This document shows positions 3,627-48,345 of a stretch of DNA of 60,051 nt, piece by piece. Location of the stretch: NCBI GenBank assembly GCA_023248875.1, contig JAHFDT010000002.1, positions 1 to 60,051 on the forward strand, read 5' to 3'. This DNA is from Myxococcales bacterium. Lineage in GTDB: Bacteria; Myxococcota_A; Polyangia; Palsa-1104; SHYY01. The notes beneath the pieces are model-generated. The model was not told the origin of the DNA, ran no database searches, and saw only the letters and a list, made by a program, of their open reading frames with translations. Each line of letters opens with the position of its first letter. Within the stretch, counting starts at the first letter, position 1. Position numbers and translations under genes: made by a program.

Positions 3627-3708
3627 ACCCTCGCTGCCCAATCTTGGGCAGCGCAGCCAGGACCACGACTCGACGGACCCACCAGGATTGGCTACCCTGC
3701 CAAACCTC

Positions 3709-6913
<3,205 letters not shown>

Positions 6914-6921
<8 letters not shown>

Positions 6922-7564: not shown

Positions 7565-7579
7565 TCCGTCGAGGCGACC

Positions 7580-9052
7580 ATGGGTGAGGCGAATCAGCAA
7601 GCGGGCAGCGACTATTCGCAGCGGGAACAGGCAACGCGGGCGGCCCATGTGGCAGCGCTCGATGCGCTCGCGGCGCAGCGGAACCATTGGCGCAAAAAGA
7701 ATGGTTTCTATTACCGGTCGATCGAGGAGCTGGCTCGCTTTGTGATCCCGCCGGGGGCGCGCGTGCTCGAAATCGGCTGCGGCACCGGCGACCTTCTGGC
7801 CGCCCTCCAACCGGCGGAGGGCGTAGGCATCGATATCGCGCCGCGCATGATCGAGCGCGCGCGGGAGAAGCACCCCCATCTCCGCTTCATCGTCGATGAC
7901 GCGGAGCGACTCGAAGCCCCTGAACTCCACGGCAGGACCTTCGACTACATCGTGCTCAGCGATGTGGTCGGCCAGCTGATCGATGTCTGGGCGGCGTTTC
8001 GTGCGCTCCGACGGGTCGCCCATCCGCGTACGCGCATTCTGGTGACCTACTACAACTTCGTCTGGGAGCCGATTTTGCGCCTCGGCGAACGGCTCGGGCG
8101 GAAGATGCCCATCCGCCAGCAGAACTGGCTTGGAATGGCAGACCTCCGGAACTTGCTCGAGCTGTGCCATTTCGAGGTGATCCGCTCGGGCACGGCGACA
8201 CTGGTGCCCGTCGAGTTGCCCCTGGCGCGGCTCGTCAACCGCTACCTCGCGCGCGCGCCGCTCTTGCGCCACTTCGCATTGACGCAGTTCTTCGTCGCAC
8301 GGCTCGCCCACGGCGGAGGTCCCATTCCCGAGCGCGAATACTCCTGCTCGGTGGTCGTGCCCTGCAAGAACGAGTGCGGGAATATCGACGATATCGTCGC
8401 GCGCACGCCCCACATGGGACGCGCAACCGAGCTGGTGTTCGTCGATGGCAATTCGGACGATGGCACCGTAGAGGCGATCGAGAACCATCTCGACAAACCC
8501 TGGGTAAAGCTCGTCCCCCAGGGCGACGGGCGCGGCAAAGGCGATGCAGTACGCAAAGGCTTTGCGGCTGCGTCCAACGAGCTGCTGTTCATTTTGGACG
8601 CCGATCTCACCGTGCCGCCCGAAGATCTACCGAAATTCTACGCGGCCATCGCGGAGGGCAAGGGCGAGTTCATCAATGGCTCGCGGCTGGTCTATCCCAT
8701 GGAGGGCCAGGCGATGCGCTTCCTCAACCTCCTGGGAAACAAGTTTTTCGGCGCCGCTCTATCGGCGATCTTGGAGCAGCGCCTCAAGGATACGCTGTGC
8801 GGCACCAAAGTGCTGCTCAAGCGGGATTATCAACGGATCGCCAATGCCCGCAGCTTCTTTGGCGACTTCGACCCCTTTGGCGATTTCGACCTACTTTTTG
8901 GTGCCGCCAAACAGAATCTCAAGATCCTGGAGATGCCGATCCGCTATCGCGACCGCACCTATGGCGAGACCAAAATCAGCCGTTTCCGCCACGGCTGGCT
9001 GCTCGGCCAGATGACGCTGCACGCCTGGCGTAAGTTCCGCCAAGCGTATTAA
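7580..9052 (+). CDS. Fusion protein: N-terminal SAM methyltransferase plus C-terminal GT2 (Dpm1/GtrB-like polyprenol-phosphate glycosyltransferase)
   Basis: VLEIGCGTGDL motif in the N-terminal half; the C-terminal half has VVVPCKNE...VFVDGNSDDGT...LDADL and GETKISRFRHG, typical of Dpm1-like GT2 enzymes. Confidence 0.8.
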   Translation: MGEANQQAGSDYSQREQATRAAHVAALDALAAQRNHWRKKNGFYYRSIEELARFVIPPGARVLEIGCGTGDLLAALQPAEGVGIDIAPRMIERAREKHPHLRFIVDDAERLEAPELHGRTFDYIVLSDVVGQLIDVWAAFRALRRVAHPRTRILVTYYNFVWEPILRLGERLGRKMPIRQQNWLGMADLRNLLELCHFEVIRSGTATLVPVELPLARLVNRYLARAPLLRHFALTQFFVARLAHGGGPIPEREYSCSVVVPCKNECGNIDDIVARTPHMGRATELVFVDGNSDDGTVEAIENHLDKPWVKLVPQGDGRGKGDAVRKGFAAASNELLFILDADLTVPPEDLPKFYAAIAEGKGEFINGSRLVYPMEGQAMRFLNLLGNKFFGAALSAILEQRLKDTLCGTKVLLKRDYQRIANARSFFGDFDPFGDFDLLFGAAKQNLKILEMPIRYRDRTYGETKISRFRHGWLLGQMTLHAWRKFRQAY

Positions 9053-9809: not shown

Positions 9810-10028
9810 CTATTCGGGGTTCGATCGAACCCTCGAACGGCTTCGCAAACCGAAGAAAAGTGCAATCGAACCCAAGATGAGCATCCCATCTCCGACATGG
9901 CAACAAGGGATCCCCATCCACACCCATCTTTCGGGCCCGATGCGGTCGACAATTGCCAGTATTGCTCCTGCAATCAACAGGATGATTGCCCCCTGAGTCA
10001 GCGACAGTTCAGTACTTGGCTCAGCCAT
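9810..10028 (-). CDS. Small two-TM membrane protein (hypothetical)
   Basis: 72 aa from the internal ATG, preceded by a GGGAGG SD; two hydrophobic helices; sits in a lower-GC stretch. Confidence 0.45.
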   Translation of the reverse strand: MAEPSTELSLTQGAIILLIAGAILAIVDRIGPERWVWMGIPCCHVGDGMLILGSIALFFGLRSRSRVRSNPE

Positions 10029-10622: not shown

Positions 10623-11180
10623 CTAAACTTCCATAATCTCCGCCTCTTTTTTGGCGATGATCTCATCCACCTTGGCGACGGCCTTGTCGATCGCCGCCTG
10701 CATCTTGGTCAGGCCGGTTTTGGCAGCATCCTCGGACACATCGCCATCCTTCTCGAGCTGCTCGAGCATCTCCTTGCAGTCGCGCCGCTGTCCGCGGATC
10801 GCCACCTTTGAGTCCTCACCGATGCGTTTGACCACCTTCGAGAGATCGCGGCGCCGCTCGGTGGTAAGCGCCGGAATGGGCAGTCGCACCAGCTCGCCAT
10901 CGGACGAAGGATTGAGCCCGAGGTCAGCCTTGCGGATCGATTGCTCGATCTCGGAGCAGAGCTTCTTTTCCCAAGGCTTGATGGTGATGAGGCGCGGGTC
11001 GGCCACCGCCAGCGATGCCACCTGGTTGAGCGGCGTCATCGTGCCGTAGTATTCGACCCGCACGCCATCGAGTAGCGCCAAATTCGCGCGGCCAGTGCGC
11101 ACCTTGCTGAGCTCGCGCTTGAGTGACTCGAGCGCGCCGGCGATCCCCGAATCCAAGTCCTTGAGTACGTCATCCACCAT
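10623..11180 (-). CDS. frr: Ribosome recycling factor
   Basis: 185 aa; [27 protein letters not shown]...ITIKPWEK. Confidence 0.95.
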
Positions 11181-11901
11181 GGCTCTGCTCCTCCGAAACT
11201 AGCGTGCCGATCGGTTCGCCCATCACCACGCGCCGAATATTTCCCTGCTGCCGTAGATCGAATACCAGGATCGCCAGCCGATTGTCTCGGCACAGCGAAA
11301 TTGCCGTCGAGTCCATCACCTGCAAATCGCGCTGTAACACATCGAGGTAGGAGAGGCGATCAAAGCGCTTGGCGTCGGGGAACTTCTTGGGATCCTTGTC
11401 GTAGACACCATCGACTCGCGTCGCCTTGAGCAGCACATCGGCGTGGATCTCCATCGCCCGCAGCGATGCCGCCGTATCGGTCGTGAAGTAGGGATTGCCG
11501 GTGCCGCCCGCGAAGATCACGATGCGCCGCTTCTCGAGATGGCGCATCGCTCGGCGACGGATATACCCCTCCGCCACCTCGCGGATTTCGATCGCCGACT
11601 GCACGCGCGTCGCCACGTCGCGCCGCTCGAGCGCATCCTGCATCGCCAGCGAATTCATCACCGTCGCCAGCATGCCCATGTAGTCGGCCGACGCCCGGTC
11701 CATCCCCTGCGAGGCCGCCTTGAGCCCGCGGAAGATATTGCCCCCGCCGATCACCAGCGCCACTTCGACGCCAAGCTCGTGAACCTCCTTCACCTCGGCC
11801 GCAATACGCTCGAGTGTCGTCCCATCGATGCCATAATTGCCCTCGCCCATGAGGGCCTCGCCCGACAGCTTGAGGAGGATGCGGCGGTATTTAGGGACCA
11901 C
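11170..11901 (-). CDS. pyrH: UMP kinase
   Basis: 243 aa; [13 protein letters not shown]...[10 protein letters not shown]...[18 protein letters not shown]. Confidence 0.95.
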
Positions 11902-11904
11902 GAC

Positions 11905-12567
11905 CTACAATCCTGCCTGCTTGGCCACCTCGGCGGCAAAATCGTCCTTGCGCTTCTCGAGCCCCTCGCCCAGCTCCCAGCGGACAAAACGGCGGATTCG
12001 GATGTTCTCGCCGATCTTGGCGACGATCTCGGTGAGCAGCGCGCCGATGGTCTTCTTGCCTTCGGGATCACGCACCCAAATCTGGTCGAGCAGACAAACG
12101 TCCTTCTTCCACTTCGCGATCTGGCCTTCGACGATCTTGCCCACGATCTCGGCCTTCTTGCCCTGCTCGATCGCCTTGGCGGTCAGAATAGCGCGCTCGC
12201 TTTCGATCGCATCCGGCGCGACCTCATCGGCCGAGACGTAGAGTGGCGTCGGTGAAGCGCCGGCAATGTGCATCGCAACGTCCTTGACGAAATTCCGGAA
12301 ATCGTCGCCGCGCGCGACGAAATCGGTCTCGCAATTGACCTCGACGAGCACCCCGACCCGGCCGTTGTGGATGTAGGAATGCACCAACCCCTCCGAGGCC
12401 ACGCGCCCCGCCTTCTTGGCCGCCGCCGCCAACCCTTTCTTGCGCAGATACTCGCCCGCCTTTTCCAAATCGCCGTCGGTCTCGACCAGCGCCTTCTTGC
12501 AATCGGCCATCCCTGCGCCCGTTCGTTCGCGCAGATCCTTCACCATCGCTGCCGTGATCTCAGCCAT
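11905..12567 (-). CDS. tsf: Translation elongation factor Ts (short form)
   Basis: 220 aa; [27 protein letters not shown]-like N-terminus; lies between rpsB and pyrH. Confidence 0.95.
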
Positions 12568-12582
12568 CGTTCACTCCAATGA

Positions 12583-13464
12583 TTACTCGTTGGTCTCGGT
12601 TTCGCCCTCGGGCGTCGCGCGCGCTTCGGCATCCGGTCGCGGCCCACGCCGAGTCGAAATCTCCACCTTCGGTCCATCGCCACCCGACTGCACGCGGATC
12701 GTCTCCGCCCGCTCCTCGCCCGACTCCCGCTTGTCGCGCTGCTGGATCGCCCGCTCCTTGCCGAGACGCGCACCGATGAGGCAGGCGTCGGCGATCTTGC
12801 CTGTAAACAGCTTGACCGCGCGGATCGCATCGTCGTTGCCCGGGATCAAGTAGTCGATGAGATCCGGATCGCAGTTGGTATCGGCGATCGCGATCACCGG
12901 GATCTCCAACTTGCGTGCCTCACTGACCGCGATGTGCTCCTTCTTGGCATCGACCACGAACAGCGCCCCCGGAAGCCCACCCATCGCCTTGATGCCGCCG
13001 AGCGTCTTCTCGAGCTTGATCCGCTCGCGCTCGAGCTCCAGCACCTCCTTCTTGGTCAGCCGCTCGAAGGTGCCATCCTCGCCCATCTTCTCGATCGCCC
13101 GCAGCCGGTCGATCGACCCCTTGACGGTACGGAAGTTGGTGAGCGTGCCGCCCAGCCACCGGTTGGTGACATGGAACATCCCCGCGCGCTTGGCCTCCTC
13201 CTGGATCACCTCCTGCGCCTGCTTCTTGGTGCCGACGAACAGCACCGAGTGGCCGCCCGCCACCGTCTCGACCACAAACTGGTAGGCGCGCAGAAACAGC
13301 TGCACCGTGTGCTGCAGGTCGATAATGTGGATGCCGTTGCGGGCGCCGAAAATGAAGGGGCGCATCTTCGGATTCCAGCGCTTGGTCTGGTGGCCGAAGT
13401 GCACGCCTGCCTCAAGCAGCTGGCGCATGGTGATGGGGGCGGACGAATCCTGCTGAGTTTCCAT
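12583..13464 (-). CDS. rpsB: 30S ribosomal protein S2 with a charged C-terminal extension
   Basis: [19 protein letters not shown]...VDLQHT...; conserved rpsB-tsf order. Confidence 0.95.
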
Positions 13465-17850: not shown

Positions 17851-17986
17851 GCTCCTACGGTACCATGTTGTCGTGGAGCCCGGGTCGAGACCGTCAAAAA
17901 CGACGACCCACGCGGGCAGTGGCCATGTAACACGCTTAAATCATGTAACTTATTATCAGGAACGGGGTTTGCTTAGCCAAACCCAC

Positions 17987-18931
17987 ATGCAGCCACGCGA
18001 AAAGGATTCGCCGGCGCGGACGCTTCACTCGGCGAAGGCCCGTCCTCTTCGGGAGGTCGGAAAAGCAGACCTCTCAGACGTGCAGGTGAAAAAGTTCAGG
18101 CCCACCGATGCGGCGGCGATCAGCCACTTTGTCCGCGAGGGCTACGTGGCCTACACCGGTATCTATGCGCCTTCCTTGATCGCCGCTTGCCGCTCCTTCT
18201 GTCTCGACCGCTTCCACCATCGGCTGCAGCAGAGCACGAAGCGCAAGCTCGCCCAGGACGTCAATGGATGGGCCGTCGAGATCGTCGAAGCGTTTGCGAA
18301 AACGGACCTCTACGACCGGTTCATCACCCATCCCAAGAGCCTCGCCCTCTTGCAGCGCTATCTCGGGCCCGACCTGGCCATTCTCGGCTACGACGCGTTG
18401 TGGATCAACGTTCCCCGGGACCGGGATCCGGTACTGCTCAAAGGCATCCATTCTGACGCCTGGACCGGAACGTCGATCCACACCCTCTTCGCCAAGACCT
18501 TTTTTACCGATTGCGACGCCTACAATGGCATGTCGGTCTGTCCCGGCTCCCACCTGCAGGGGATGATTCCGGTGCGGAACCGAGCCGTAGATCCCGCCTG
18601 CGACGTCGCATTCAATTCGGTCAATCTGTCCACCATGAAGGCGGGCGATCTATTGATATGGCACCCGCTGCTGCTGCACTCCACGACCGGGCATAGCGAT
18701 ACCAATATCCGCATCTCTTTGACCTCGCGCTACACCTCGACCGAAACCCCGTTTAGCTCGCAGGAGCGTGCGCTCGGCTATCGCACGCTCAGCGTTGGCC
18801 CCATGAATCAGGTCGGCCGTATGATCGGCAACGACCTGCTCACGCCCTTTCGAACCTATGGTGGCTTCGTGGGAATTGACCGAAGAATGGGTGCGGTCTA
18901 TCCGCACAGCGACTACAAAAATGGATATTGA
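17987..18931 (+). CDS. Phytanoyl-CoA dioxygenase (PhyH) family Fe(II)/2-oxoglutarate oxygenase
   Basis: GIHSDAW (HxD) and WHPLLLHST (distal His) spacing fits PhyH-type oxygenases; start is probably ATG 17987, after an AT-rich leader. Confidence 0.7.
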   Translation: MQPREKDSPARTLHSAKARPLREVGKADLSDVQVKKFRPTDAAAISHFVREGYVAYTGIYAPSLIAACRSFCLDRFHHRLQQSTKRKLAQDVNGWAVEIVEAFAKTDLYDRFITHPKSLALLQRYLGPDLAILGYDALWINVPRDRDPVLLKGIHSDAWTGTSIHTLFAKTFFTDCDAYNGMSVCPGSHLQGMIPVRNRAVDPACDVAFNSVNLSTMKAGDLLIWHPLLLHSTTGHSDTNIRISLTSRYTSTETPFSSQERALGYRTLSVGPMNQVGRMIGNDLLTPFRTYGGFVGIDRRMGAVYPHSDYKNGY

Positions 18932-19142
18932 ATCGATCCTCAAGAAACTGCTGCCCGACGCCGGCATCGTCTCACTGGAGGGCGACGTGGTGACCATCGA
19001 ATCTGCAGCCAGCGGCAAGGCCGTCTTCGATGCCGAGATCGCGCTGCGCAAAGAGACAGGACGCCCGTACGAGATCATGCTGGGACGGATGGAAGACCGA
19101 AACGTGATCCGTATCCGGCGGGCAGAGAAAAGGCGCGCATGA
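18921..19142 (+). CDS. Small hypothetical protein (73 aa, Cys-free, basic tail)
   Basis: ATG 18921 overlaps the PhyH stop by 11 nt (alternative ATG 18858); MDIESILKKLLPDAGIVSLEGDVVTIE...RIRRAEKRRA; no clear SD. Confidence 0.45.
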   Translation: MDIESILKKLLPDAGIVSLEGDVVTIESAASGKAVFDAEIALRKETGRPYEIMLGRMEDRNVIRIRRAEKRRA

Positions 19143-19160
19143 CACGAAGGGGATTTCGCC

Positions 19161-20267
19161 ATGAGTGAAAGTTGGAATGAACTCTTGGACGGAACCAAGA
19201 TTGCGTATCATCGGGAGCGCATCGATGCGTGGGAGCGCGGCGAACGGATCGCCCCCATCACCATCGACATGTCCCTCACCCGTTCCTGCAATGCCGGGTG
19301 CCGCTTCTGCGCCGCCTGGTACCAGGAAAACGAGCGAAAGCCCATCACCGAGGAGGTGATGGAACGCTTTCTTGTGGACTGTGCCGAGATCGGCGTCAAA
19401 GGAATATCGCTCATCTCGGATGGCGAATCGACCATCAGCCCCTGTTTCAAATTCACCGTGAAGCGCGGCAAAGAGCTCGGCATCGATATGGCGGTCGGAA
19501 CCAATGGAATGGTGTTCACGCGCGAATGGTCGGAGGAGCTACTGCCGCATCTGACCTATCTGCGCATCAATTTCTCGGGTGGAACCAAAGAGAGATATTC
19601 AGAAATCATGGGTCTCAAACCCGTCTGGTATGACAAGGTCGTACAGAACATCAGAGATATGGTGGCGGTAAAGCGGGAGCGCGGCCTCTCCTGCACCCTT
19701 GGCATGCAGTTTGTGCTCATGCCCGACTTCGCCGACCAGATCCTGCCGTTTGCCGCACTCGGAAAAGAGCTTCGCCCCGACTATGCAATCATCAAACACT
19801 GTTCGGATACGCGCGACGGTGCGCTCGGCGTCGACTATTCCAAATACGACGCGCTCGATGGACTTCTCCGAGAAGCGGAAACCTATTCGGATGAGGGCTA
19901 CAAGTGCGTCGTCAAATGGACCAAGATCAAGGCCAACGGCGGAAGGTCCTACCAAAGGTGCTATGGACCCCCGTTTATCTTGCAGATCTCCGGATCGGGT
20001 CTCGTGGCCCCCTGCGGCGGAATGTTTAACGATCGGTTCCGCAAGTTCCATATGGGAAATATCGTGGAACAATCGTTCAAGGAGATCATTCTGTCGGATC
20101 GCTATCAAGAGGTGATGCGTTATCTCTCCTCGGATCAATTCAATGCCCAAAAGACCTGCGACACCCTCTGCCTCCAACACAAGACCAATGAATTCCTGGA
20201 TGCCTACAAAAAGGGAATGCGCCTGCCCGTGATTGGCGCCGCTCCGGCACACGGGAGTTTTATTTAA
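19161..20267 (+). CDS. Radical SAM enzyme with C-terminal Cys-rich (SPASM/twitch-like) region
   Basis: CNAGCRFC (Cx3Cx2C) at nt 19287-19310; GAAGGGGA SD; C-terminal Cys at RCYG, APCGG and KTCDTLC. Confidence 0.85.
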   Translation: MSESWNELLDGTKIAYHRERIDAWERGERIAPITIDMSLTRSCNAGCRFCAAWYQENERKPITEEVMERFLVDCAEIGVKGISLISDGESTISPCFKFTVKRGKELGIDMAVGTNGMVFTREWSEELLPHLTYLRINFSGGTKERYSEIMGLKPVWYDKVVQNIRDMVAVKRERGLSCTLGMQFVLMPDFADQILPFAALGKELRPDYAIIKHCSDTRDGALGVDYSKYDALDGLLREAETYSDEGYKCVVKWTKIKANGGRSYQRCYGPPFILQISGSGLVAPCGGMFNDRFRKFHMGNIVEQSFKEIILSDRYQEVMRYLSSDQFNAQKTCDTLCLQHKTNEFLDAYKKGMRLPVIGAAPAHGSFI

Positions 20268-20309
20268 CCGCACCATTGACCGCCACCGACCGGCCGGTAG
20301 AATCGCGCC

Positions 20310-21688: not shown

Positions 21689-22560
21689 GGCAGTTTGCAT
21701 GGTTCGCGCTACTGGCCGTCGGTTGTTATGATCCCTGCTTTGGCCATGGTGGCACTTGCATCGGTCTCACCGTGACGGGAAATCTCGGCCCCATCGATCA
21801 GCTGGGCATCACGGTCACAGCAGCGGAGCAAAAAACGCCGCCCCTACCGCAGGAGCATTCGCTGCCCGTCACCACCGCGCTCTATCTTAAGGATGACGTG
21901 ACGGGCATGGTCGATGTGAAGGTGACCGCCTACCATTCGGGCAGCCCGGTAGGCCAGGGCCATTCGGTCGTTCCCGTGACCCCAGGCCAGCATATTCCGG
22001 TGACGATCGCTGTCGTTGGAGCGATCCCCGCAGACGGTGGCGCCCTTGATAGTGGCGCCCTCGATGCTGGCGTCGATGCCAGCCTCCCCACCAATCGCTA
22101 CGTTTTTCTGACCGGACCCTTTAAGGGGGGCGGTGTGCCCGGCCTGATCGCACTCGCTGTCCGTTGCACCAGCGAAGGACAAACGCTGCGAAAGAGCGGC
22201 ACGTTCAAGTCGCTGCTCGGCCGCACGAACAGCGGTAACCAAACGGTGGCGCAGGAGGGAAGGACCATTGTCCTTCCGAGCGGCTCGCTCGTTGCCACCG
22301 ATAGCACGTTTTTTTCCGACAACCACCAAAGCGCCATCAATCAGACGGCGGACAAGAATCCCGTCACGGCCTGTGTCTGGACCAACTTCAAGACCAACGG
22401 GGAAGTCACTCCAGCCACTCCATCCTGTCTGAACTGGATGAGCTCCGACAGCAATGTGCAGGGTAGTGCCGGCAGTGGAACGGCAAAGGACAGCACTTGG
22501 GCGGTCGGCGGGCAACCGTTCTGCAGTAACCAGTGCTACGTCCTCTGCATTGAAAATTAG
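21685..22560 (+). CDS. Hypothetical lipoprotein with Cys-containing C-terminal domain (DUF1554-like guess)
   Basis: ATGA overlap with the upstream gene; lipobox LLAVGC; C-terminal RYVFLT...C...C pattern. Confidence 0.6.
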   Translation: MRQFAWFALLAVGCYDPCFGHGGTCIGLTVTGNLGPIDQLGITVTAAEQKTPPLPQEHSLPVTTALYLKDDVTGMVDVKVTAYHSGSPVGQGHSVVPVTPGQHIPVTIAVVGAIPADGGALDSGALDAGVDASLPTNRYVFLTGPFKGGGVPGLIALAVRCTSEGQTLRKSGTFKSLLGRTNSGNQTVAQEGRTIVLPSGSLVATDSTFFSDNHQSAINQTADKNPVTACVWTNFKTNGEVTPATPSCLNWMSSDSNVQGSAGSGTAKDSTWAVGGQPFCSNQCYVLCIEN

Positions 22561-23723
22561 ATTTTGAGTGAACGCACGCGTTCGACCGCTTCGCGGATCC
22601 GCGGCAGCGGGGCGCAGACGGTGAGGCGAACGTAGCCTTCGCCACCCGGGCCGAAGCCATTGGCCGGCGTGGCGACGATGCCTGCCTCGGTGAGAAGGCG
22701 CCCGGCGAACTCGGCCGAGCTGTAGCCGGTGGGATTGGCGATGAGGCAATAGAAGGTCGCGCGCGGCGCGATTACATCGTAGCCGGCGGTGCGTAGCCCC
22801 GTGACCAACACCTCCATGCGCTCCTGGTAGGTACGGCGGATGGTCTCCACGCAGTCCTGCGGTGAGCTGATGGCGGCGATGGCGGCCGCCTGGACGGCTT
22901 CAAACGCGCCCGAGTCGACGTTGGTTTTGACCTTGCCGAGGCCTCCGACGAGCGCAGCGTTCCCGACGGCAAAGCCGATGCGCCAGCCGGTCATGTTGTA
23001 GGTCTTCGAGAGCGAGTGGAACTCGATGCCACATTCGCGGGCGCCCGGAACTTCCAGAAACGATGGCGGTGGCTCGTCGTAGTAGATCTCGGAGTAGGCG
23101 AGGTCGCTGGCGACGATGATGTTGTACTGGAGGGCAAACTCGACCACCGACTGGTAAAAATCGCGCGTCGCCAGCGCGGCGGTGGGATTGTTGGGATAGT
23201 TGATCCAAAGTACTTTGGCGCGCTCGGCCACCGCCGGTGGCACCGACGCGAGATCGGGCAAAAAGCCATTGTTTCGCTCCAGCCGAAGAGAGTGCACCTC
23301 GCCCCCCATGAAGCGCGTCCAGGTGGCGTAGACGGGATAGCCGGGATCGGGCACCAGCACGACATCGCCGGGATCGACGAAGGCGACGGGAAAGTGGCCG
23401 ATGCCCTCCTTGGAGCCGATGAGCGCCACCACTTCACGCTCGGGATCGAGCCCGCGCACGCCGAAGCGCTCGGCGTAGAAGTTGGCTGCGGCCTGGCGAA
23501 AGGTGGCCATCCCCTCGTACGAAGGATAGCGATGGTATTTCGCCTCGGCCGCGGCGCTCTGCATCGCCGCTACGATGTGTCCGGGAGTGGGCTGATCGGG
23601 ATCGCCGATGCCCAGATCGATAAGGTCTTTGCCTTGGCGACGGAGCTCGGCCTTCTTGCGGTCGATATCAGCGAATAGGTAGGGCGGAAGCTGGCGGATC
23701 CGCTGAGCGAGTTCGATCTTCAT
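22557..23723 (-). CDS. Class I/II PLP aminotransferase (LL-diaminopimelate aminotransferase-like)
   Basis: LPPYLFADIDRKKAE...DLGIGDPDQPTP N-terminus; PLP lysine motif SLSKTYNMTGWRIG. Confidence 0.75.
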   Translation of the reverse strand: MKIELAQRIRQLPPYLFADIDRKKAELRRQGKDLIDLGIGDPDQPTPGHIVAAMQSAAAEAKYHRYPSYEGMATFRQAAANFYAERFGVRGLDPEREVVALIGSKEGIGHFPVAFVDPGDVVLVPDPGYPVYATWTRFMGGEVHSLRLERNNGFLPDLASVPPAVAERAKVLWINYPNNPTAALATRDFYQSVVEFALQYNIIVASDLAYSEIYYDEPPPSFLEVPGARECGIEFHSLSKTYNMTGWRIGFAVGNAALVGGLGKVKTNVDSGAFEAVQAAAIAAISSPQDCVETIRRTYQERMEVLVTGLRTAGYDVIAPRATFYCLIANPTGYSSAEFAGRLLTEAGIVATPANGFGPGGEGYVRLTVCAPLPRIREAVERVRSLKI

Positions 23724-23790
23724 GGTGCGTTATATAACACAACCTCAAGTTGTGTGACCGTCGGCCATCCGCTAGAGTTTTGTCCTAGCG

Positions 23791-25518
23791 ATGGCATCCG
23801 AAACTCCCCCAGGCAGTCGTCCCGCCACAGCGCCCGGTGGTGTGGTGGGCATCCTTCACGTCATTGCCGGAGTCGACCAGGGCAAGGCCTTTCCGATGGG
23901 GCGCGCTGAAACAACGGTGGGGCGCGGCGCCGACCAGGATTGCGTGCTGACCGATCTCAGTGTGTCACGTCGGCACTGCGTCATTGTGGTCGATGGCAGT
24001 GGCTATCGGTTGCGCGATCTCGGCTCGGGCAACGGCTCGCTGGTCAACAGCGCGCGCGTCGAGACGCACCTGCTAGTCGATGGCGACCAGATTGAAATCG
24101 GCAACACGCGCCTGCAGATCGAGCATGCACCGTCGCGCACCGGGGCGACTCCGGCGGGCGGGCTGCCGCAGCAGGATTCAGCGCGGACATTGATCGGCGA
24201 CGCGCCCTCACTGCCGAGCGGGCCCGTCCATCCACCGCGCCCAATGGCGCCATCGGCGATGATGCCGACCACTCCGCCGCCGCGGTCCGTCGCTTCGCGG
24301 ACTCGGCTCATCGTGGGCGGCGCGATTGTGCTCACGCTGGCCGCTGCCAGTGGATTCGGTGTGAGGTGGCTACTGAGCCGCCAAGCCCAGCAGGCCGAGC
24401 AGCTCTATTTCTCGGGGACGCAGGCGTTTGCCGCAGGAGACTTCGCCGGGGCCAAGAAGCGATTTGGCGAAGCGGAGCAGCTGTCCCCTGAGGTGGTCAC
24501 CAAGGCCCGTGAGTATCTGCGCCAGTGCGATCTCGAAATCGGACTCAAGAAACAGCTTGAGACCGCGCGCCAACGGGCAGCCGCCAAGCGCTGGGATGAG
24601 GCACTGCAGGCGCTGGCGAAAATTGAGTCCTCGTCGGCGCAGTTCGAGGAGGCGACGAAGCTGCGCCGTTCGATCATCCCGCCGGCGGTCGATGCCTATC
24701 TGGTCCAGGCGCGTGAACAGCTCGATGAGAACAACCTAACTGCAGCGGCGGTCCCGGTGGAGGCGGCGCTGGCGCTGGACCCCGACCATCCCGAACTGCA
24801 GGCGATCGTGAAGAAGCTGAGGGCGAGCCACGTGCAGGTGCGTAATCCGCGCGAGCCAAGATTTGCTCTGAAAGAGGTCCGGATTGGGCCTAATGCGGAT
24901 GAGGTGGCGGAGGCGCCCAGGGCGCGCGGCGACGATCTGCTGGCGGTGGCGGGAGTCGCGGGGCCCTATCGTTCACGCGATTTTTCGGCGGCGGCGCGGG
25001 CGCTGAAAGAGGCGGCGGGGCGTGAGAAGGGCAAGCGGGCCGCCGAGCTGCAAGCTCAGGCGGCGCAGCTGGTGAATCTCAGCGCGCTGTTGGCACGCGC
25101 CGAAGCGGACCAGGTTCGGGCGCCCAGCAGCGCGATCCGTGCTTATGGGGAGGCGCTGGCGCTCGATGCACGCCTCGGCCATGGGATGCACGATGCGTAT
25201 TTGAAAACGCAAGCGGTCACGATCGCTCGCGACGGAGCGCAGGAGTCCTTTGCGCACCAGCGCTGGGACGTGGCCTATGAGTACGTCAAGACCATCCAGC
25301 GTTTCGGCGGTGAGGACAGAGGCATTGGCGAGCAGCTGCGGAAGAAGGCAGCACAGCTCATCGTCAAAGCGGCATCGCTGCTCGGGCCCAACATGAATGA
25401 TGCGAAATCGCTCTGGCGCACGGTGATGACGATGGTGCCGGCCGATGACCCAAGCTACCAGAAGGCGCACCAGGCGCTGCAGTCTTCGACGAGTGCTCGC
25501 AAAGACGACGACGAGTAA
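23791..25518 (+). CDS. FHA domain protein with TM segment and helical-repeat C-terminal region
   Basis: FHA core TVGRGADQDCVLTDLSVSRRHCVIV...GSGNGSLVN; then a Pro-rich linker, a TM helix and TPR-like helices. Confidence 0.8.
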   Translation: MASETPPGSRPATAPGGVVGILHVIAGVDQGKAFPMGRAETTVGRGADQDCVLTDLSVSRRHCVIVVDGSGYRLRDLGSGNGSLVNSARVETHLLVDGDQIEIGNTRLQIEHAPSRTGATPAGGLPQQDSARTLIGDAPSLPSGPVHPPRPMAPSAMMPTTPPPRSVASRTRLIVGGAIVLTLAAASGFGVRWLLSRQAQQAEQLYFSGTQAFAAGDFAGAKKRFGEAEQLSPEVVTKAREYLRQCDLEIGLKKQLETARQRAAAKRWDEALQALAKIESSSAQFEEATKLRRSIIPPAVDAYLVQAREQLDENNLTAAAVPVEAALALDPDHPELQAIVKKLRASHVQVRNPREPRFALKEVRIGPNADEVAEAPRARGDDLLAVAGVAGPYRSRDFSAAARALKEAAGREKGKRAAELQAQAAQLVNLSALLARAEADQVRAPSSAIRAYGEALALDARLGHGMHDAYLKTQAVTIARDGAQESFAHQRWDVAYEYVKTIQRFGGEDRGIGEQLRKKAAQLIVKAASLLGPNMNDAKSLWRTVMTMVPADDPSYQKAHQALQSSTSARKDDDE

Positions 25519-25527
25519 CCAGATATT

Positions 25528-25869
25528 CTAGCTTCCACGGTAGGTAGAGTAACCAAAGGGGCTGATTAGCAGCGGCACGTGGTAGTGCTGCGCTGGATTG
25601 CGGATTTCAAACTGGACCTCGACGCAAGGATAGAAGGTTTCGCTGCCCAGGCGTCCGAAGTAGCCGCCGGTATCGAAGCGAAGTCGATAGATACCGGTGA
25701 CGAGCGCGCCGTCCGGTAGCAGCGTTCGCAAGCGGCCATCGCTATCGGTCGTGCCTTGGGCCAGCGGCTCAAACTGGTCGGCCGTGCCGCGCCGTTCGAG
25801 CGTGATCGGCACCCTTTCGGCGGGACAGCCTCGGGCGGTGTCCAAAACATGGGTCGTGATCGGGCTCAT
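25528..25869 (-). CDS. uraH: 5-hydroxyisourate hydrolase (transthyretin-like)
   Basis: 113 aa; ITTHVLDTARG...YHVPLLISPFGYSTYRGS C-terminal signature. Confidence 0.9.
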   Translation of the reverse strand: MSPITTHVLDTARGCPAERVPITLERRGTADQFEPLAQGTTDSDGRLRTLLPDGALVTGIYRLRFDTGGYFGRLGSETFYPCVEVQFEIRNPAQHYHVPLLISPFGYSTYRGS

Positions 25870-26372
25870 GGCGATAGCAGTTTCTCCAACCGTAGAAGGG
25901 TGATCTTTTCCTGCTCGCCCGCTGCGATGCGCAACTCGTCGCTGCGGGGATGATCGAGCCGCGCCTGGAGGAGCGCTAGCATCTCAGCCGCATTCCTGCC
26001 CGTGGCACAGACGATGAACCGAAAGCCGAAGCGCTCTTCGTAGACCCGGTTGCTCTCGGCGAGCGCGCGCAATACCTCATCGGATGCGCTGGTTGCGCCC
26101 GCCTGCTCCGAGGCAGCCCAGCCGGCGGTAGAGGCGAACTGGCCACGCAAAGCGTCGAGGTCGCCGATCTTCGGATGGTGCGAAAAGGCCTCGAGCCAAT
26201 CTTTCTCCTCGAGCGAGCGTGCGGCCTCCGCCGCGGCTGAATGCAGCGCAGCCCGATCGACAAACGGGCGCCGTGCCAACATCTGATCCACCCAGTGCTC
26301 CGCACCGCAACAGCGGCGCAGCTCCGCGCTCACCTGCTCTCGCGCGAGCTCGTTCAGCTGCGCCAAGATCAC
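25866..26372 (-). CDS. uraD: OHCU decarboxylase (2-oxo-4-hydroxy-4-carboxy-5-ureidoimidazoline decarboxylase)
   Basis: GTG 26372 overlaps the alc stop (GTGA); AFSHHPKIG...YEERFGFRFIVCATG motifs; the ORF-track N-terminal extension overlaps alc. Confidence 0.85.
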   Translation of the reverse strand: MILAQLNELAREQVSAELRRCCGAEHWVDQMLARRPFVDRAALHSAAAEAARSLEEKDWLEAFSHHPKIGDLDALRGQFASTAGWAASEQAGATSASDEVLRALAESNRVYEERFGFRFIVCATGRNAAEMLALLQARLDHPRSDELRIAAGEQEKITLLRLEKLLSP

Positions 26373-27358
26373 TTCAGCGTGCCCCAAAGACGCAAGCGCG
26401 CTATTCCCCCGTCGGGATAGATGTTGAGCCGCACGTGGGTGACCGGCTCGCTCGTCTGCAGATCGAAGGTATGGCGCTGGTCGGCCTGAAGTTTGGTGGG
26501 CGGCAGAATTTCCTTCCAGGCGATGCTGCGACTGGCGAGGAAATCGCCCGCCACTTCGCCCGCCAGAAAAACGCCGTCGAGCGAGCAGCGGTCGGGAAAG
26601 TTGCCCTTGAAGTGGGCGGTGTCGACCTCGGCGCGCTGCACTAGGCCGGACGCGCCCAGCTGCACGATCACCCAGTCGTGGCCAGGACCCCGCTTGCGCT
26701 TGGTCTCCCAGCCATCGCCCATGTTCAGCGAGGGTCCCGGCAGGATCAGATTGTCCTTGGGCCCGAAGAACATATCGTTGCACAGTTGCACTACGCCGCC
26801 ATTCTCGACAGCCGCGAGGTCGACGAGGCCAACCGTCCGCAGCCGCGCCAGATCGGGCCGCACTTCACCATGCACGCGCAGCCGCGCTACGCCACCGTCG
26901 GGAAAGATGGCCAGGCGCACGTGGGTGAAGCGGTGCACGTCATCGACCGGCACGAGATTCTGCGAGCCTCCCGCAAGGCGCGTGCGTGGCACCAACAAGG
27001 CCCAGTGCGCTCTTTCGAGCTGCTCCGTCGTGGCGTCGGCGGACGCTTCGCAGGCTTCGAGTGAGGCGTGCTCGGGAAAATTGCCGAGGAAGTGGTTGGT
27101 GTCGAAATCGATGCCGCGGATGCGACCTGCGAGCCCCAACCGCACGATGCACCAGTCGTGGCCAGGGGTGCGGCGCCGGCGCGTCTCCCAGCCGTCCATC
27201 CACTTGCCGCGATCGGTGTACTTGCCGGCGATGAAAACGCCGCGCCCCGGCTTGAGGAGATTCTCTTTGGGTGCAAAGAACTCGTCGTTGGCGGCGAGCA
27301 CGGTGCCACCGAGCCGCTCCGCGGCCAGGTCGAGCAGTTGGGTAAAATCGGATGTCAT
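26369..27358 (-). CDS. alc: Allantoicase
   Basis: 329 aa; duplicated allantoicase repeats (DEFFAPKENLL...GWETRRRR and DMFFGPKDNLI...GWETKRKR). Confidence 0.9.
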   Translation of the reverse strand: MTSDFTQLLDLAAERLGGTVLAANDEFFAPKENLLKPGRGVFIAGKYTDRGKWMDGWETRRRRTPGHDWCIVRLGLAGRIRGIDFDTNHFLGNFPEHASLEACEASADATTEQLERAHWALLVPRTRLAGGSQNLVPVDDVHRFTHVRLAIFPDGGVARLRVHGEVRPDLARLRTVGLVDLAAVENGGVVQLCNDMFFGPKDNLILPGPSLNMGDGWETKRKRGPGHDWVIVQLGASGLVQRAEVDTAHFKGNFPDRCSLDGVFLAGEVAGDFLASRSIAWKEILPPTKLQADQRHTFDLQTSEPVTHVRLNIYPDGGIARLRLWGTLK

Positions 27359-28698
27359 GCAGCGGATTTCCTTCCTAACAGTTGCATACCACGGGCGCGG
27401 GCGAGAAAGGAGCCATTGCGGTAGATGGGCTCGCCGCGCAAGATCGTCTGTTCGACGACGCCCGACAGGGTGCGGCCCGCGTAGGGCGTCAACTTGTGTT
27501 TATGCTGGATCATCGTGGGCTCGACGAAAAGTTGCGCTTCCGGGCGCCAGAAGACCAGGTCGGCATCGTAACCCGGAGCGATGCGTCCCTTGCGGCCATC
27601 TAGACCCGCGAAGGCCGCGGGGCGCGCGCTCAGCCAAGTGGTGAGCTGTTCGAGGGTCACGCCGCGCTCGCGTGCCGCCGTCCAAACGGCGGGCAGCGCC
27701 AACTGCACCGATGAAATCCCCCCCCAGGCGCCGAGAAAATCGCCCTGCTCGAGCTGCTTGAGGTGGGGTGTGCAGGGCGAATGGTCCGAGACCACGAAAT
27801 CGATGGTGCCCTCGAGAAGCGCGCGCCAAAGCTGCTCACGGTTGGGTCGCTCCCGAATCGGCGGCGCGCACTTGTATTGGGTGGCGCCCTCCGGGATCTC
27901 CTCGGCGGCAAAGGTGAGGTAGTGGGGACAGGTCTCCACGGTGATCGGCACGCCCGCGCGACGCGCCGTGGCGAGGTCGGTGAGCGCCTCGGCGGCGGAG
28001 AGGTGGACGATATGCACGTGGCAGCGAGTTTGGCGCGCGAGCTCGATCATCAAACGAATGGCCGCGCGCTCCATTTCGGGTGGGCGCGAGTCAAGATAGG
28101 TGGTGTAGTGGTGCGGCGGACCGGAACCCTGCGTTCCCAGATCGAGCTCCGCATGAACGAGGAGCGGCACGTTGCGTCGGGCGAGAATGGGCATCGCTTG
28201 GCGTAGGTCCGCTTCGGTCACATTCGGAAACTCGTCGATGCCGGAAGGGACAAGAAAGGCCTTGAAGCCGAGCACGCCAGCGTCGATGAGCGGCTCAAGT
28301 TCGGCTACGTTCCCAGGAACGAGTCCGCCCCAAAAACCGCAGTCGATGTGGCACAGACCGCCGAGGGCGTGGAGTTTCGTCTCCAGTGCCGCCCGTGTCG
28401 TCGTCACAGGAATGCAGTTGAGCGGCATATCGACGAGCGTCGTAATCCCCCCTGCGGCGGCCGCGCACGTGGCCGTGTCGAAACCCTCCCATTCGGTTCG
28501 GCCCGGCTCGTTGACATGGACGTGGCTGTCGCACAGTCCAGCCATCAGCACCGCATCACCGCCATCGAAAAGCTCGTACGCGGAGGGAACCTCGTGGTGC
28601 TCGGCGATCCGTTCGATCGTGCCATGGTCCACAATGACCGTCGCCGGTCGGACGCCCTGGCCGAAGATCACGCGGCGGCTACGAAACGCTCGCTTCAT
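27355..28698 (-). CDS. allB: Allantoinase (cyclic amidohydrolase)
   Basis: Start at internal ATG 28698 (ATGA overlap with the upstream stop); GLCDSHVHVNEPGRTEWEGF metal-binding HxH motif. Confidence 0.88.
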   Translation of the reverse strand: MKRAFRSRRVIFGQGVRPATVIVDHGTIERIAEHHEVPSAYELFDGGDAVLMAGLCDSHVHVNEPGRTEWEGFDTATCAAAAGGITTLVDMPLNCIPVTTTRAALETKLHALGGLCHIDCGFWGGLVPGNVAELEPLIDAGVLGFKAFLVPSGIDEFPNVTEADLRQAMPILARRNVPLLVHAELDLGTQGSGPPHHYTTYLDSRPPEMERAAIRLMIELARQTRCHVHIVHLSAAEALTDLATARRAGVPITVETCPHYLTFAAEEIPEGATQYKCAPPIRERPNREQLWRALLEGTIDFVVSDHSPCTPHLKQLEQGDFLGAWGGISSVQLALPAVWTAARERGVTLEQLTTWLSARPAAFAGLDGRKGRIAPGYDADLVFWRPEAQLFVEPTMIQHKHKLTPYAGRTLSGVVEQTILRGEPIYRNGSFLARARGMQLLGRKSAA

Positions 28699-29498
28699 CC
28701 CGCTCGTCGCAAAACCTTGGCTGCGCCCCAGCCGGCCAGCACCAGTACGGCGAGCACCATCCAGTTGTAGTCGCTGCCGAAGGTCGAGGTCGGAAAGTGG
28801 TTGCTGATCATGATGAAAACCAGCGGCAGTACCATGAAGGTGTTGTGCTTGGAACGCATCTTGGCGCGCGCGGCGAGCGCTGGATCGGGCTTTCCGCCCG
28901 CTTTCGTTGCGGCGATGAGCTGCTGCTGCGCGGGCAGGATGCAGCGCCACACGTTGGCCGCCATCAGGGTGCCGAGCAGCGCACCGATGTGGATGTAGAC
29001 CGCGCGGCCGCTGAAGAGCCGGGTGAGCCCGTAGGTGATCGCGACCAGCAAGAGGTAGGAGACCACGACCGCCGCTGAGGGCGGCAGCGGCAGACTCCAC
29101 AATCGGTCGTAGATCAACCAGCCGAGCAGGAGCAGTCCGACGGTAATTCCGATGCCCGCTGTTAGACTCAGGTCGCGCACATCCTTATCGATGAGTGCGC
29201 CGCCAAAATGGTAGACGAGAAATAACAACACGATTCCGCTCAACCAGGTAAAGGCCGCTTCCCATCGGAACCAGTGGAGCGTGCGCTCGAGCGACGGTGC
29301 ATTCTGCTTTTCCACCACGTAGAAGCCGCCGCTGTGGACCATCCAGACTTGACCCTGCTCGGCCGGATCGTGCAGGCGCCCATCTAGCCAGGTAAAAAAA
29401 TAGGTCGACCCGATCCAGAGGATCCCGGCGAATACGTGGGCCCAGCGGAGCAATAGATGGAGCCACTCGGTGAGGTCGAAGTTCATTCGATCTTCCAT
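28695..29498 (-). CDS. Membrane urate hydroxylase PuuD-like protein (membrane domain only)
   Basis: 267 aa; multi-TM; N-terminus EWLHLLLRWAHVFAGILWIGSTYFFTWLD matches the PuuD membrane-domain family as I remember it; no CxxCH heme motif; first gene of the purine operon. Confidence 0.65.
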   Translation of the reverse strand: MEDRMNFDLTEWLHLLLRWAHVFAGILWIGSTYFFTWLDGRLHDPAEQGQVWMVHSGGFYVVEKQNAPSLERTLHWFRWEAAFTWLSGIVLLFLVYHFGGALIDKDVRDLSLTAGIGITVGLLLLGWLIYDRLWSLPLPPSAAVVVSYLLLVAITYGLTRLFSGRAVYIHIGALLGTLMAANVWRCILPAQQQLIAATKAGGKPDPALAARAKMRSKHNTFMVLPLVFIMISNHFPTSTFGSDYNWMVLAVLVLAGWGAAKVLRRAG

Positions 29499-29547
29499 TC
29501 GAAAAAAAACGTCCCCAACGAAACCACCATCGAGGCATCATAGCGGC

Positions 29548-30348
29548 GTGCCACCACGAAAGGAAATCCTGATTCGCTCCGCTGGCACCGAGGATTACGA
29601 GTCGTTCGTCGGACTCCTGTCTCATCTCGGCGTCGATGATCCGGTGCCGACGTTCGAGTGTTGGCAAAAGGAGCGACAGCGCGAGACCTGGATCGCCGAG
29701 CGCGATGGGCGCGTGGTGGGCTACTGTTATGCGCAGCTGCTCGGGGAGCTCGGGCGAGTCGCGCAGCTGGTGGTAGGGCCCCAAGCCCGTCGCCGCGGAA
29801 CGGGGAGGGCGCTGCTGGTACGTGCCACAGAGGCGTTCCGCGCGCGTGGCGCAAAGGAGTGGTCACTCAACGTAAAGCCGGACAATCAGGCGGCGATCGG
29901 TCTCTATCAATCCTGCGGACTGCACGTCGCTTACCGCTCGTGGGCGCTGCGAATGCTCTGGGATCGCCTGGAACAGCTGCCTTGCGAAGCAGTCACTGCG
30001 CGCGAATTGCTGCCCGCAGAGGATGGCGAGGTCGAGCTGCAGTGGGGGCTTTCGCCGGGGCGTTTAGCGGCTGCGCGCAAGCTAGACGGTCGCGTCCTTT
30101 TAGGACTGGCCGGCCAGTCCTGCTCCTGGCTGGGGGTCGCCGTGTTTGATCCCTCGTTCCCCGGCGCCTACCCCTTTCGCATCGCCCGTCCCGCGCTAGC
30201 AGGACCCCTCTTGCGGGTCCTGCAGCCCCACGCTCGCCACGACTATCTGGGCCTCGTGGTGGAGGACGATGCCCCACTGGCCGAGGTGCTCATTCAGGCC
30301 GGTGCCACCCTGCGCTTCGAAATGCTGCATATGCAAGGGCCCCTATGA
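29548..30348 (+). CDS. GNAT family N-acetyltransferase with an extra C-terminal domain
   Basis: QLVVGPQARRRGTGRALL acetyl-CoA motif; probable GTG start at 29548, divergent from the purine operon. Confidence 0.7.
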   Translation: MPPRKEILIRSAGTEDYESFVGLLSHLGVDDPVPTFECWQKERQRETWIAERDGRVVGYCYAQLLGELGRVAQLVVGPQARRRGTGRALLVRATEAFRARGAKEWSLNVKPDNQAAIGLYQSCGLHVAYRSWALRMLWDRLEQLPCEAVTARELLPAEDGEVELQWGLSPGRLAAARKLDGRVLLGLAGQSCSWLGVAVFDPSFPGAYPFRIARPALAGPLLRVLQPHARHDYLGLVVEDDAPLAEVLIQAGATLRFEMLHMQGPL

Positions 30349-46935: not shown

Positions 46936-46947
46936 TCTAACGACAGC

Positions 46948-48339: not shown

Positions 48340-48345
48340 AGCGGA

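Follow-up and report, generated by a model that had tools for sequence, protein, structure and literature searches.

A virus-type radical-SAM gene trio from a Myxococcota contig and its candidate place in an uncharacterised nucleotide-sugar pathway

In a 60,051-nucleotide stretch of contig JAHFDT010000002.1 from a Myxococcales bacterium (NCBI GenBank assembly GCA_023248875.1; the whole stretch is called the window here), three neighbouring open reading frames (ORFs) encode a PhyH-family dioxygenase, a small protein and a radical S-adenosylmethionine (SAM) enzyme. We conclude, with moderate confidence, that this trio was acquired horizontally and is the virus-type sub-cassette of an uncharacterised but widespread pathway making a modified nucleotide-activated sugar, and that, to judge from its sequence relatives, the small protein is most likely a helper subunit of the radical-SAM enzyme, not a peptide to be modified. 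A preliminary description of the same DNA had proposed an uncharacterised system for modifying a peptide or a small molecule that could not be placed in any characterised pathway. The second part of that judgement holds, as the radical-SAM enzyme stays below every curated NCBIfam cut-off and the module is uncharacterised in the libraries searched; the peptide option is not supported.

The profile searches suggested at that stage put the PhyH, Radical_SAM and SPASM models above their Pfam cut-offs, the radical-SAM protein scoring 52.3 bits against 29.5 for Radical_SAM (PF04055) and 34.5 against 21.5 for SPASM. With this match to the core-barrel model and a CxxxCxxC motif (C43, C47 and C50) that is invariant in 26 relatives, its sequence places it in the radical-SAM superfamily. 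C74 is also invariant in the 26-sequence alignment and C214 nearly so. Four further family-invariant cysteines lie in the C-terminal segments RCYG (C267, codon 19959-19961), APCGG (C285, 20013-20015) and KTCDTLC (C333, 20157-20159, and C337, 20169-20171), and they make up two invariant motifs, CX12GX4C (C267, G280, C285) and CX3C (C333, C337). The earlier comparison of this cysteine set with SPASM/twitch domains is borne out by the Pfam SPASM score but not by the full seven-cysteine SPASM motif (PF13186/TIGR04085; CX9-15GX4C ... CX2CX5CX3C ... C), whose CX2CX5CX3C block is absent. Because that block is absent, the most economical reading of the sequence suggests a twitch-like domain with one auxiliary cluster. 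No cut-off was reached among the curated NCBIfam radical-SAM subfamilies (W_rSAM_matur, NirJ, MoaA, viperin, SkfB, PqqE, DesII, BlsE and others), the best score being 56.7 bits against 380 for TIGR04317, and a profile search of the PDB returned only SkfB (E = 1e-7) and DesII (E = 8e-5), the match being limited to the core barrel in both. Neither PHROGs nor PADLOC yielded a specific match, the PADLOC pVip model covering residues 33-140 only, and a viperin-like defence-system reading was rejected on that ground. Full-text searches found no paper on the radical-SAM enzyme of this family or on its partner protein, and the family is uncharacterised in the resources covered, namely NCBIfam (June 2026), Pfam, PHROGs, PADLOC and the full-text literature.

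A protein search returned thousands of relatives, the best 120 all at least 64% identical to the window enzyme. Scanning GTDB with one genome per species, we found relatives that are 61-68% identical to it in at least 521 species genomes, from Omnitrophota, Acidobacteriota, Planctomycetota, Verrucomicrobiota, Nitrospinota, Alpha-, Beta- and Deltaproteobacteria, Myxococcota, Pelagibacter, SAR202 and a Nitrosotalea archaeon, and 33 IMG/VR contigs carry one as well. Across many bacterial phyla and the one archaeon, family members share 60-77% identity. Conservation this high, combined with so patchy a distribution, points to one fixed reaction that has moved horizontally.

The neighbours of the family indicate what that reaction may serve. 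We clustered the ORFs around the radical-SAM gene in 83 loci, searched for marker proteins in 121 loci (122 sequences with the window) and counted neighbours in loci of at least 12 kb only (68 cellular and 26-27 viral-like). A thiamine pyrophosphate (TPP) enzyme is present in about 88% of loci (60/68 cellular, 23/26 viral-like); it resembles either the E1α and E1β subunits of pyruvate dehydrogenase (E1αβ; 59/68 and 18/26), the type to which the branching enzyme AviB1/AviB2 belongs, or acetolactate synthase (ALS) and YerE (5/68 and 5/26). Also recurrent are a cytidylyltransferase-like nucleotidyltransferase (59/68 cellular, 18/27 viral-like), a PfkB kinase that is usually fused and HldE-like (56/68, 18/27), a DegT aminotransferase, often in two copies (54/68, 8/27), a short-chain dehydrogenase/reductase (SDR) of the epimerase/dehydratase kind (54/68, 8/27) and a GmhA-like SIS isomerase (35/68, 18/27), the GmhA- and HldE-like assignments lying below NCBIfam cut-offs. 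Glycosyltransferases of the GT2 and TIGR04372 families recur as well. In viral loci the E1αβ and ALS-like enzymes are mutually exclusive, as expected for alternative solutions to one step, and thiamine enzymes of the E1αβ or YerE type install two-carbon branches on keto-sugars (PMC4753412). Because the neighbours are sugar enzymes together with TPP enzymes of kinds that add a two-carbon branch, the family belongs to a nucleotide-sugar pathway, probably one leading to a branched amino sugar, and not to a peptide pathway. In Azospirillum oryzae KACC 14407 the plasmid NZ_CP054615 carries, at 207.5-219.9 kb, a 12-gene operon in the order SDR-SDR-PfkB-SIS-SDR-E1α-E1β-DegT-DegT-hypothetical (360 residues)-radical SAM-NUDIX, followed by glycosyltransferases, where the Prokaryotic Genome Annotation Pipeline names the central pair only 'hypothetical protein' and 'radical SAM protein'. 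Just past this sugar operon (22518-29983 of the extracted locus) are genes whose annotations read PqqD-family chaperone, lasso peptide B2 protein, asparagine-synthetase-B family protein and 2-oxoglutarate (2OG)-Fe(II) oxygenase, and after them three 'tail fiber protein' genes; these are probably unrelated neighbours of the operon.

The small protein has 73 residues and no cysteine, has no Pfam match, and gave no match to Pfam or PDB sequence profiles even at E = 10. A word-indexed search with it found only itself, and when 1.84 billion representative proteins were searched exhaustively with HMMER, no more than nine additional small relatives came to light; two entries from that search (P0126 and P0131) were rejected as repeat-protein false positives. 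Its homologues are 32-51% identical, those encoded on phage-like contigs (70-94 residues) being 44-49% identical to the window protein, and their genes mostly abut or overlap the start of the radical-SAM gene, with an extra 70-residue ORF between the two in one contig (L084). By hidden Markov model (HMM) search, a short form lies just upstream of the radical-SAM gene in 20 of 31 viral-like loci, so the pairing recurs beyond the window. In cellular loci, a BLAST-level search for the small ORF and the PhyH gene in 80 of them returned almost nothing and first suggested that the small ORF is not conserved; that suggestion was overturned by profile comparison with a longer protein. Cellular genomes encode, directly upstream of the radical-SAM enzyme, a protein of about 365 residues without Pfam domains, present in 78 of 81 cellular loci and ending at most 120 nt upstream on the same strand in 69 of the 81. 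An hhalign comparison of the small family with the C terminus (last ~60 residues) of this long partner gave a probability of 95.9% and E = 5e-9. On this profile evidence, the 73-residue protein is a short form of the long radical-SAM partner, consisting of its C-terminal domain on its own.

Predicted structures agree with that relationship. The AlphaFold (AF2) model of the small protein, which supplies the structure prediction proposed earlier, is a folded domain with the element order alpha-beta-beta-alpha-beta-alpha (pLDDT 80.4 overall and 85-91 for residues 1-50), and the model of the long partner (pLDDT 83 overall) ends in the same order of elements. E39, D59 and R64 (E338, D358 and R363 in the long form) are invariant in both forms, and N61 (N360) is invariant in the long-partner alignment only, the short family being variable at this position. 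The low-confidence, basic C-terminal tail of the small-protein model contains D59 and R64 and, on this prediction, is probably flexible until bound. The long partner itself matches in two pieces or reading frames in 18 cellular loci (L015-L020, L022, L025, L040, L045, L046, L049-L052, L058, L066, L067 and L073); in those inspected, such as L016, these are adjacent genes for the N-terminal ~106 residues and for the IscU-like and C-terminal ~244 residues, and the partner, being split into two genes in some loci, is therefore modular. A Polyangiaceae metagenome-assembled genome (L048, ~9900-9950) is the sole cellular locus with only the C-terminal part upstream (profile positions 326-366, E = 6.5e-4), and may hold a cellular short form or a divergent partner.

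The middle domain of the long partner resembles IscU and SufU in predicted structure (Foldseek E = 1e-4, probability 1.0, TM 0.6-0.66), a resemblance echoed in sequence by sub-threshold NifU_N matches in 9 of 21 members (best E = 1.9e-5) and by an IscU-type match at E = 0.007 in a PDB profile search. No cysteine column is invariant or at least 90% conserved in the long partner (alignments A6 and A7), and the scaffold position 'GCA(I)S' is occupied by Ala or Ser in the HMM alignment. The long partner is thus a cysteine-less IscU/NifU-like protein, with the IscU fold present and the three cysteines that serve as cluster or persulfide ligands absent. A segment of the small protein had previously been called Nfu-like, though without the CxxC. 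That label did not survive, as the protein has no CxxC, no sequence match to Nfu or the NifU C-terminal domain and only a faint fold match, to CnfU at E = 0.08, among many small alpha/beta proteins; a Foldseek search with it found nothing significant in the PDB or BFVD (best E = 0.01). The hunch was nevertheless close, for it is the long partner that carries an IscU/NifU_N-like middle domain.

An IscU-type fold beside an enzyme with a conserved set of auxiliary-cluster cysteines also invites a different explanation, in which the partner is an Fe-S helper for a radical-SAM enzyme that sacrifices its auxiliary cluster, inserting sulfur into a sugar (compare BioB, LipA and the thiosugar-forming AbmM), and recruits or rebuilds that cluster in the way that NfuA serves LipA; NfuA has a degenerate A-type domain with which it docks on its radical-SAM clients LipA and MiaB. 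We think this quite improbable, given that all three IscU ligand cysteines are missing and no cysteine column reaches 90% conservation in the long or the short partner, that the IscU-like part occurs in none of the viral-like loci and the form in the window lacks it entirely, and that no cysteine desulfurase is linked to the family loci. A degenerate scaffold domain may still dock on the radical-SAM enzyme, in which the partner would resemble NfuA. Compared with NfuA, NifU and IscU, however, the partner and the small protein lack the cluster-binding cysteines and the Nfu CxxC, and the partner is genetically dedicated to one radical-SAM enzyme and is not a general carrier.

Most SPASM/twitch enzymes act on peptides or proteins, and a small gene placed directly upstream of the radical-SAM gene and translationally coupled to it could encode the substrate. 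Either the small protein or the long partner's tail would then be modified at a residue of the D-x-N-x-x-R segment by the radical-SAM enzyme, joined here by the PhyH protein, to give a peptide akin to those made by the ribosome and modified after translation (RiPPs) or a protein-derived cofactor; that E39, D59 and R64 are the most conserved positions across both forms, two of them in the probably flexible tail, fits this idea. We nevertheless judge it improbable. The small protein has neither cysteines nor a leader/core architecture, residues 1-50 are predicted to be folded, and in nearly all cellular loci the same domain sits in a multidomain protein of 365 residues. Neither it nor the radical-SAM enzyme matches PqqD or a RiPP recognition element (RRE); the enzyme has no room for an RRE, because only 42 residues precede its first motif cysteine. 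The conserved neighbours are nucleotide-sugar enzymes, with no linked peptidase, exporter or RiPP tailoring gene in the window flanks, the 83 clustered loci or the 122 sequences scanned, and no transporter or precursor peptide among them, and a PhyH gene is rare near the family. The pairs PqqD/PqqE and MftB/MftC resemble the present one in that a small protein gene lies beside, and is translationally coupled with, a SPASM/twitch-group radical-SAM gene, but the small protein here has an alpha-beta-beta-alpha-beta-alpha fold without the winged-helix RRE signature, no precursor peptide accompanies it and the neighbours are sugar enzymes. Among the roles offered in the preliminary description, 'recognition or chaperone element' fits best, and that of substrate or precursor is unsupported for a folded domain that is homologous to part of a 365-residue protein.

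The dioxygenase scores 41 bits against a cut-off of 22 for Pfam PhyH (PF05721; E = 3.4e-10) and keeps the iron triad HxD...H (H193, D195 and H269 in ORF numbering), invariant in alignment A8; on both counts its sequence assigns it to the PhyH-type Fe(II)/2-oxoglutarate family. It does not reach TIGR04324, the sporadic carbohydrate cluster 2OG-Fe(II) oxygenase (41.9 bits against 150), of which by sequence it is only a distant relative. The longest ORF runs from 17873 and the first ATG is at 17987, and alignment with relatives suggests GTG 18080 or 18086, not either of these, as the real start. The protein is 59-62% identical to those encoded beside the small ORF and the radical-SAM gene in the phage-like contigs L002 and L084; the PhyH-small-radical-SAM order is contiguous in L002, and in L084 the order is PhyH, small-ORF homologue, extra 70-residue ORF, radical SAM. 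Few family loci have a PhyH gene near the radical-SAM enzyme (5/68 cellular, 1/27 viral-like), and its product would be an optional hydroxylase. In a few cellular loci a shorter, different PhyH-like dioxygenase lies directly downstream of the radical-SAM gene (L020, 11046-11861; L022, 11135-11893); these enzymes are 21-22% identical to the window PhyH and lack its ~65-residue C-terminal extension, so a hydroxylase has been recruited to the family radical-SAM enzyme more than once.

We propose that the radical-SAM enzyme would use its 5'-deoxyadenosyl radical to remove hydrogen from an intermediate that is either a sugar or a nucleotide sugar, with the second electron handled by the single twitch-like auxiliary [4Fe-4S] cluster. 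The most likely reaction would be a BtrN-type oxidation of a C-H/C-OH centre, which would create or process the keto group that both the TPP carboligase and the aminotransferases need; alternatively, the enzyme may catalyse a rearrangement linked to the two-carbon branch installed by the thiamine enzyme. The small protein would be a non-catalytic, stoichiometric subunit that docks on the enzyme through its conserved D-x-N-x-x-R tail, and the PhyH protein would add an optional hydroxyl group. Within its own genome, the trio may tailor a sugar made by unlinked genes, or it may be a recently captured, still-intact fragment.

Three known systems frame this proposal. BtrN, the 2-deoxy-scyllo-inosamine dehydrogenase of butirosin and a twitch-domain radical-SAM enzyme, has one auxiliary [4Fe-4S] cluster, which here would be formed by the four invariant C-terminal cysteines, acts on a carbohydrate-type small molecule, as the window enzyme is presumed to do, and has DegT-family aminotransferases alongside, as do most cellular loci of the family. 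Unlike the family enzyme, BtrN needs no dedicated small subunit, and the context here is one of nucleotide-sugar and TPP enzymes, not of aminocyclitol synthesis, with no DegT in the window. By analogy, a BtrN-like dehydrogenase would be suggested by the putative auxiliary cluster and by linkage to the keto-requiring DegT and TPP enzymes. DesII, a TDP-4-amino-4,6-dideoxyglucose deaminase/dehydrogenase and the second-best solved relative of the window enzyme, is a radical-SAM enzyme acting on a nucleotide-activated amino sugar; it differs in having neither an auxiliary-cluster domain nor a partner protein, and the similarity is confined to the core barrel. The pathways of the YerE and AviB1/AviB2 type (yersiniose, eurekanate, paulomycose) likewise hold an ALS-like or PDH-E1αβ-like TPP enzyme inside a nucleotide-sugar operon (PMC4753412), but the activating genes here are heptose-route-like (GmhA/HldE) and not those of CDP- or dTDP-hexose routes. 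Neither a radical-SAM enzyme nor an IscU-like partner is known to us from the described two-carbon-branched-sugar pathways.

Several observations weigh against the proposed sugar role. The window contains no DegT aminotransferase, kinase, nucleotidyltransferase, SIS isomerase or TPP enzyme and no linked GT2; because these pathway genes are absent from it, the trio is an orphan and its function in its own genome is unproven. BtrN was not matched at E <= 1e-3 in the PDB profile search with the radical-SAM enzyme, and a short partner went undetected upstream of the radical-SAM gene in 11 of the 31 viral-like loci, one of which (L090) has a copy elsewhere in the locus. Substrate and reaction are deduced from gene context in a family of which no member has been studied, and the C-terminal tail, being conserved and flexible, might just as well indicate where a modification is made.

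The horizontal acquisition suggested by the preliminary description is supported both by base composition and by the viral type of the nearest relatives. The closest relatives of the radical-SAM enzyme (68-77% identical) are on contigs that also encode RecT, an integrase, AAA_24 and polyvalent proteins of 1,462 to ~3,800 residues, one of these contigs being an IMG/VR viral genome. In a midpoint-rooted neighbour-joining tree, whose branching order is only indicative, the window enzyme falls within the viral clade with the short partner, whose sister is the cellular clade with the long partner. GC content is 0.53-0.60 across the trio against 0.63-0.70 in the flanks (0.576 for the trio as a whole and 0.628 for the window); in this the trio agrees with the nearest phage-like contigs (0.53-0.63) and not with its host. 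Codons had been said to end in A or T far more often than in adjacent genes; at 0.70-0.74, third-position GC is indeed modestly lower than the 0.79-0.83 of the adjacent genes, but the claim was overstated, since several other window genes have 0.63-0.73, and the GC drop of the trio is mostly at codon position 1. We found no close relative in isolated phage genomes in GenBank (best tblastn match 25% identical) and no convincing flanking direct repeats or att-like sites around 17.85-20.3 kb. The nearest phage-like contigs carry a larger cassette (L085, 2661-13247; L087, 2897-14948; L001, 2509-10008) that includes a second, MoaA-like radical-SAM/SPASM enzyme, DUF4177, a cytidylyltransferase, PfkB, SIS, DJ-1/PfpI, an ALS-like TPP enzyme of unusual length (770-790 residues), small ORFs, the radical-SAM enzyme, GT2 and HAD_PNKP, with polyvalent proteins of more than 3,000 residues beside it in L085 and L087.

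The trio is thus a horizontally acquired, virus-type orphan, intact between folK and a ZIP gene. It might be a functionless relic of a phage sugar cassette, intact only through recent capture, for no usual pathway partner lies within 60 kb, its GC is lower, its nearest relatives are viral and its flanks are core housekeeping genes (rpsB-tsf-pyrH, folK, ZIP, aminotransferase). We regard this as rather unlikely. The three ORFs are intact and tightly coupled, with a ribosome-binding site and a promoter-like leader, and among 169 highly conserved columns the radical-SAM enzyme deviates at 6, other family members at 2-10, so that it gives no sign of decay. The closest DNA relative found is 73% identical, so that no sampled phage is a recent donor and the trio is not a very recent copy of one. 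The arrangement of small ORF, radical-SAM gene and ZIP gene recurs at ~100% nucleotide identity in assemblies from three other samples and is therefore no assembly artefact, and the missing pathway genes may lie in the rest of the genome. A virus-type sub-cassette of a sugar pathway remains our preferred reading of the trio.

The positions, motifs and spacings given in the preliminary description are all present in the sequence (Table 1), and the layout, read directly from it, confirms the trio as a genuine co-directional module. The small ORF overlaps the end of the PhyH gene by 11 nt, and the 18-nt spacer between the small ORF and the radical-SAM gene (19143-19160) contains GAAGGGGA. The direct repeat proposed for the leader is there as well, its unit CATGTAAC having these two copies only in the window, against ~0.39 expected by chance. 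It overlaps a sigma-70-like site (17927-17956; -35 GTAACA, -10 TATTAT), and from sequence the two could be a putative promoter or operator. A riboswitch or structured leader was rejected, with no Rfam match in the leader and RNA folding that is not significant (z = -1.86). Sites like the terminator-like and promoter-like ones at the end of the radical-SAM gene are no more numerous than in shuffled sequence.

Table 1. Positions of the trio and its candidate signals in the window
Feature	Position	Strand	Remark
PhyH-family dioxygenase ORF	17987..18931	+	first ATG 17987; TGA 18929-18931
Small ORF, 73 residues	18921..19142	+	ATG 18921-18923; stop 19140-19142
Radical-SAM ORF, 368 residues	19161..20267	+	CNAGCRFC encoded at 19287-19310
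AT-rich leader with repeat CATGTAAC-N10-CATGTAAC	17924..17956	+	copies 17924-17931 and 17942-17949, 18 nt apart
Ribosome-binding-site-like GAAGGGGA	19146..19153	+	7 nt ahead of the radical-SAM ATG
Weak terminator-like stem, then TTTATTTAAC	20241..20258	+	at the end of the radical-SAM gene
Promoter-like site for the ZIP gene	20276-20303		after the terminator-like stem

The trio is flanked by SulP, folK, ZIP and aminotransferase genes, with rpsB-tsf-pyrH a few kilobases upstream. The rpsB, tsf and pyrH-like amino-acid kinase genes (11173-13464) mark the contig as chromosomal, and at 90% identity each of their proteins forms a cluster of one, which shows how sparsely the host lineage has been sampled. 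Some 9 kb upstream of the trio there is a separate, unrelated glycan cluster of the GDP-mannose-derived deoxysugar type (3427-9052), with a GT87 glycosyltransferase, a fucose-synthase-like epimerase, a GDP-mannose 4,6-dehydratase, a methyltransferase and a methyltransferase-GT2 fusion; in principle, keto-deoxysugar substrates for the trio could come from this cluster. A UDP-glucose/GDP-mannose dehydrogenase gene (45625-46932, + strand) adjoins one for a B12-binding radical-SAM protein (46951-48339, - strand), followed by one for a protein of the same length, 463 residues, without a Pfam match (48349-49737, - strand); this second radical-SAM locus of the window (45625-49737) is unrelated to the trio.

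The family is unusually conserved across a range that takes in Pelagibacter, Nitrospina, Azospirillum, Myxococcota and an archaeon that oxidises ammonia, and is frequent on phage contigs. As a further and more tentative step, which we hold to be possible and somewhat doubtful, the radical-SAM enzyme and its partner may form a new two-component radical enzyme, in which the partner is a degenerate, cysteine-less NifU/IscU-type obligate subunit and the 73-residue protein its minimal virus-type form; with a thiamine-dependent carboligase it would make an undescribed branched higher-carbon amino sugar, found in the surface glycans of hundreds of bacterial species and used by phages to decorate DNA, virions or the host surface. 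In the libraries and literature searched we found no description of a dedicated IscU-like partner without cysteines or of its minimal viral form, and such a partner, a cysteine-stripped protein with an Fe-S-scaffold fold, would, if confirmed, be a new accessory subunit for the radical-SAM superfamily. To our knowledge, sugar-tailoring radical-SAM enzymes are few, and each of them (BtrN, DesII, AprD4, AbmM) revealed new chemistry. The window copy, a minimal three-gene version, is an orphan fragment that may or may not be active in its host; for enzymology the family as a whole is a target worth taking up, and the A. oryzae plasmid operon offers a cultured, genetically tractable version of it. 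In abundant environmental bacteria, the sugar made by the pathway probably decorates surfaces or DNA and so shapes how phages and their hosts recognise each other.

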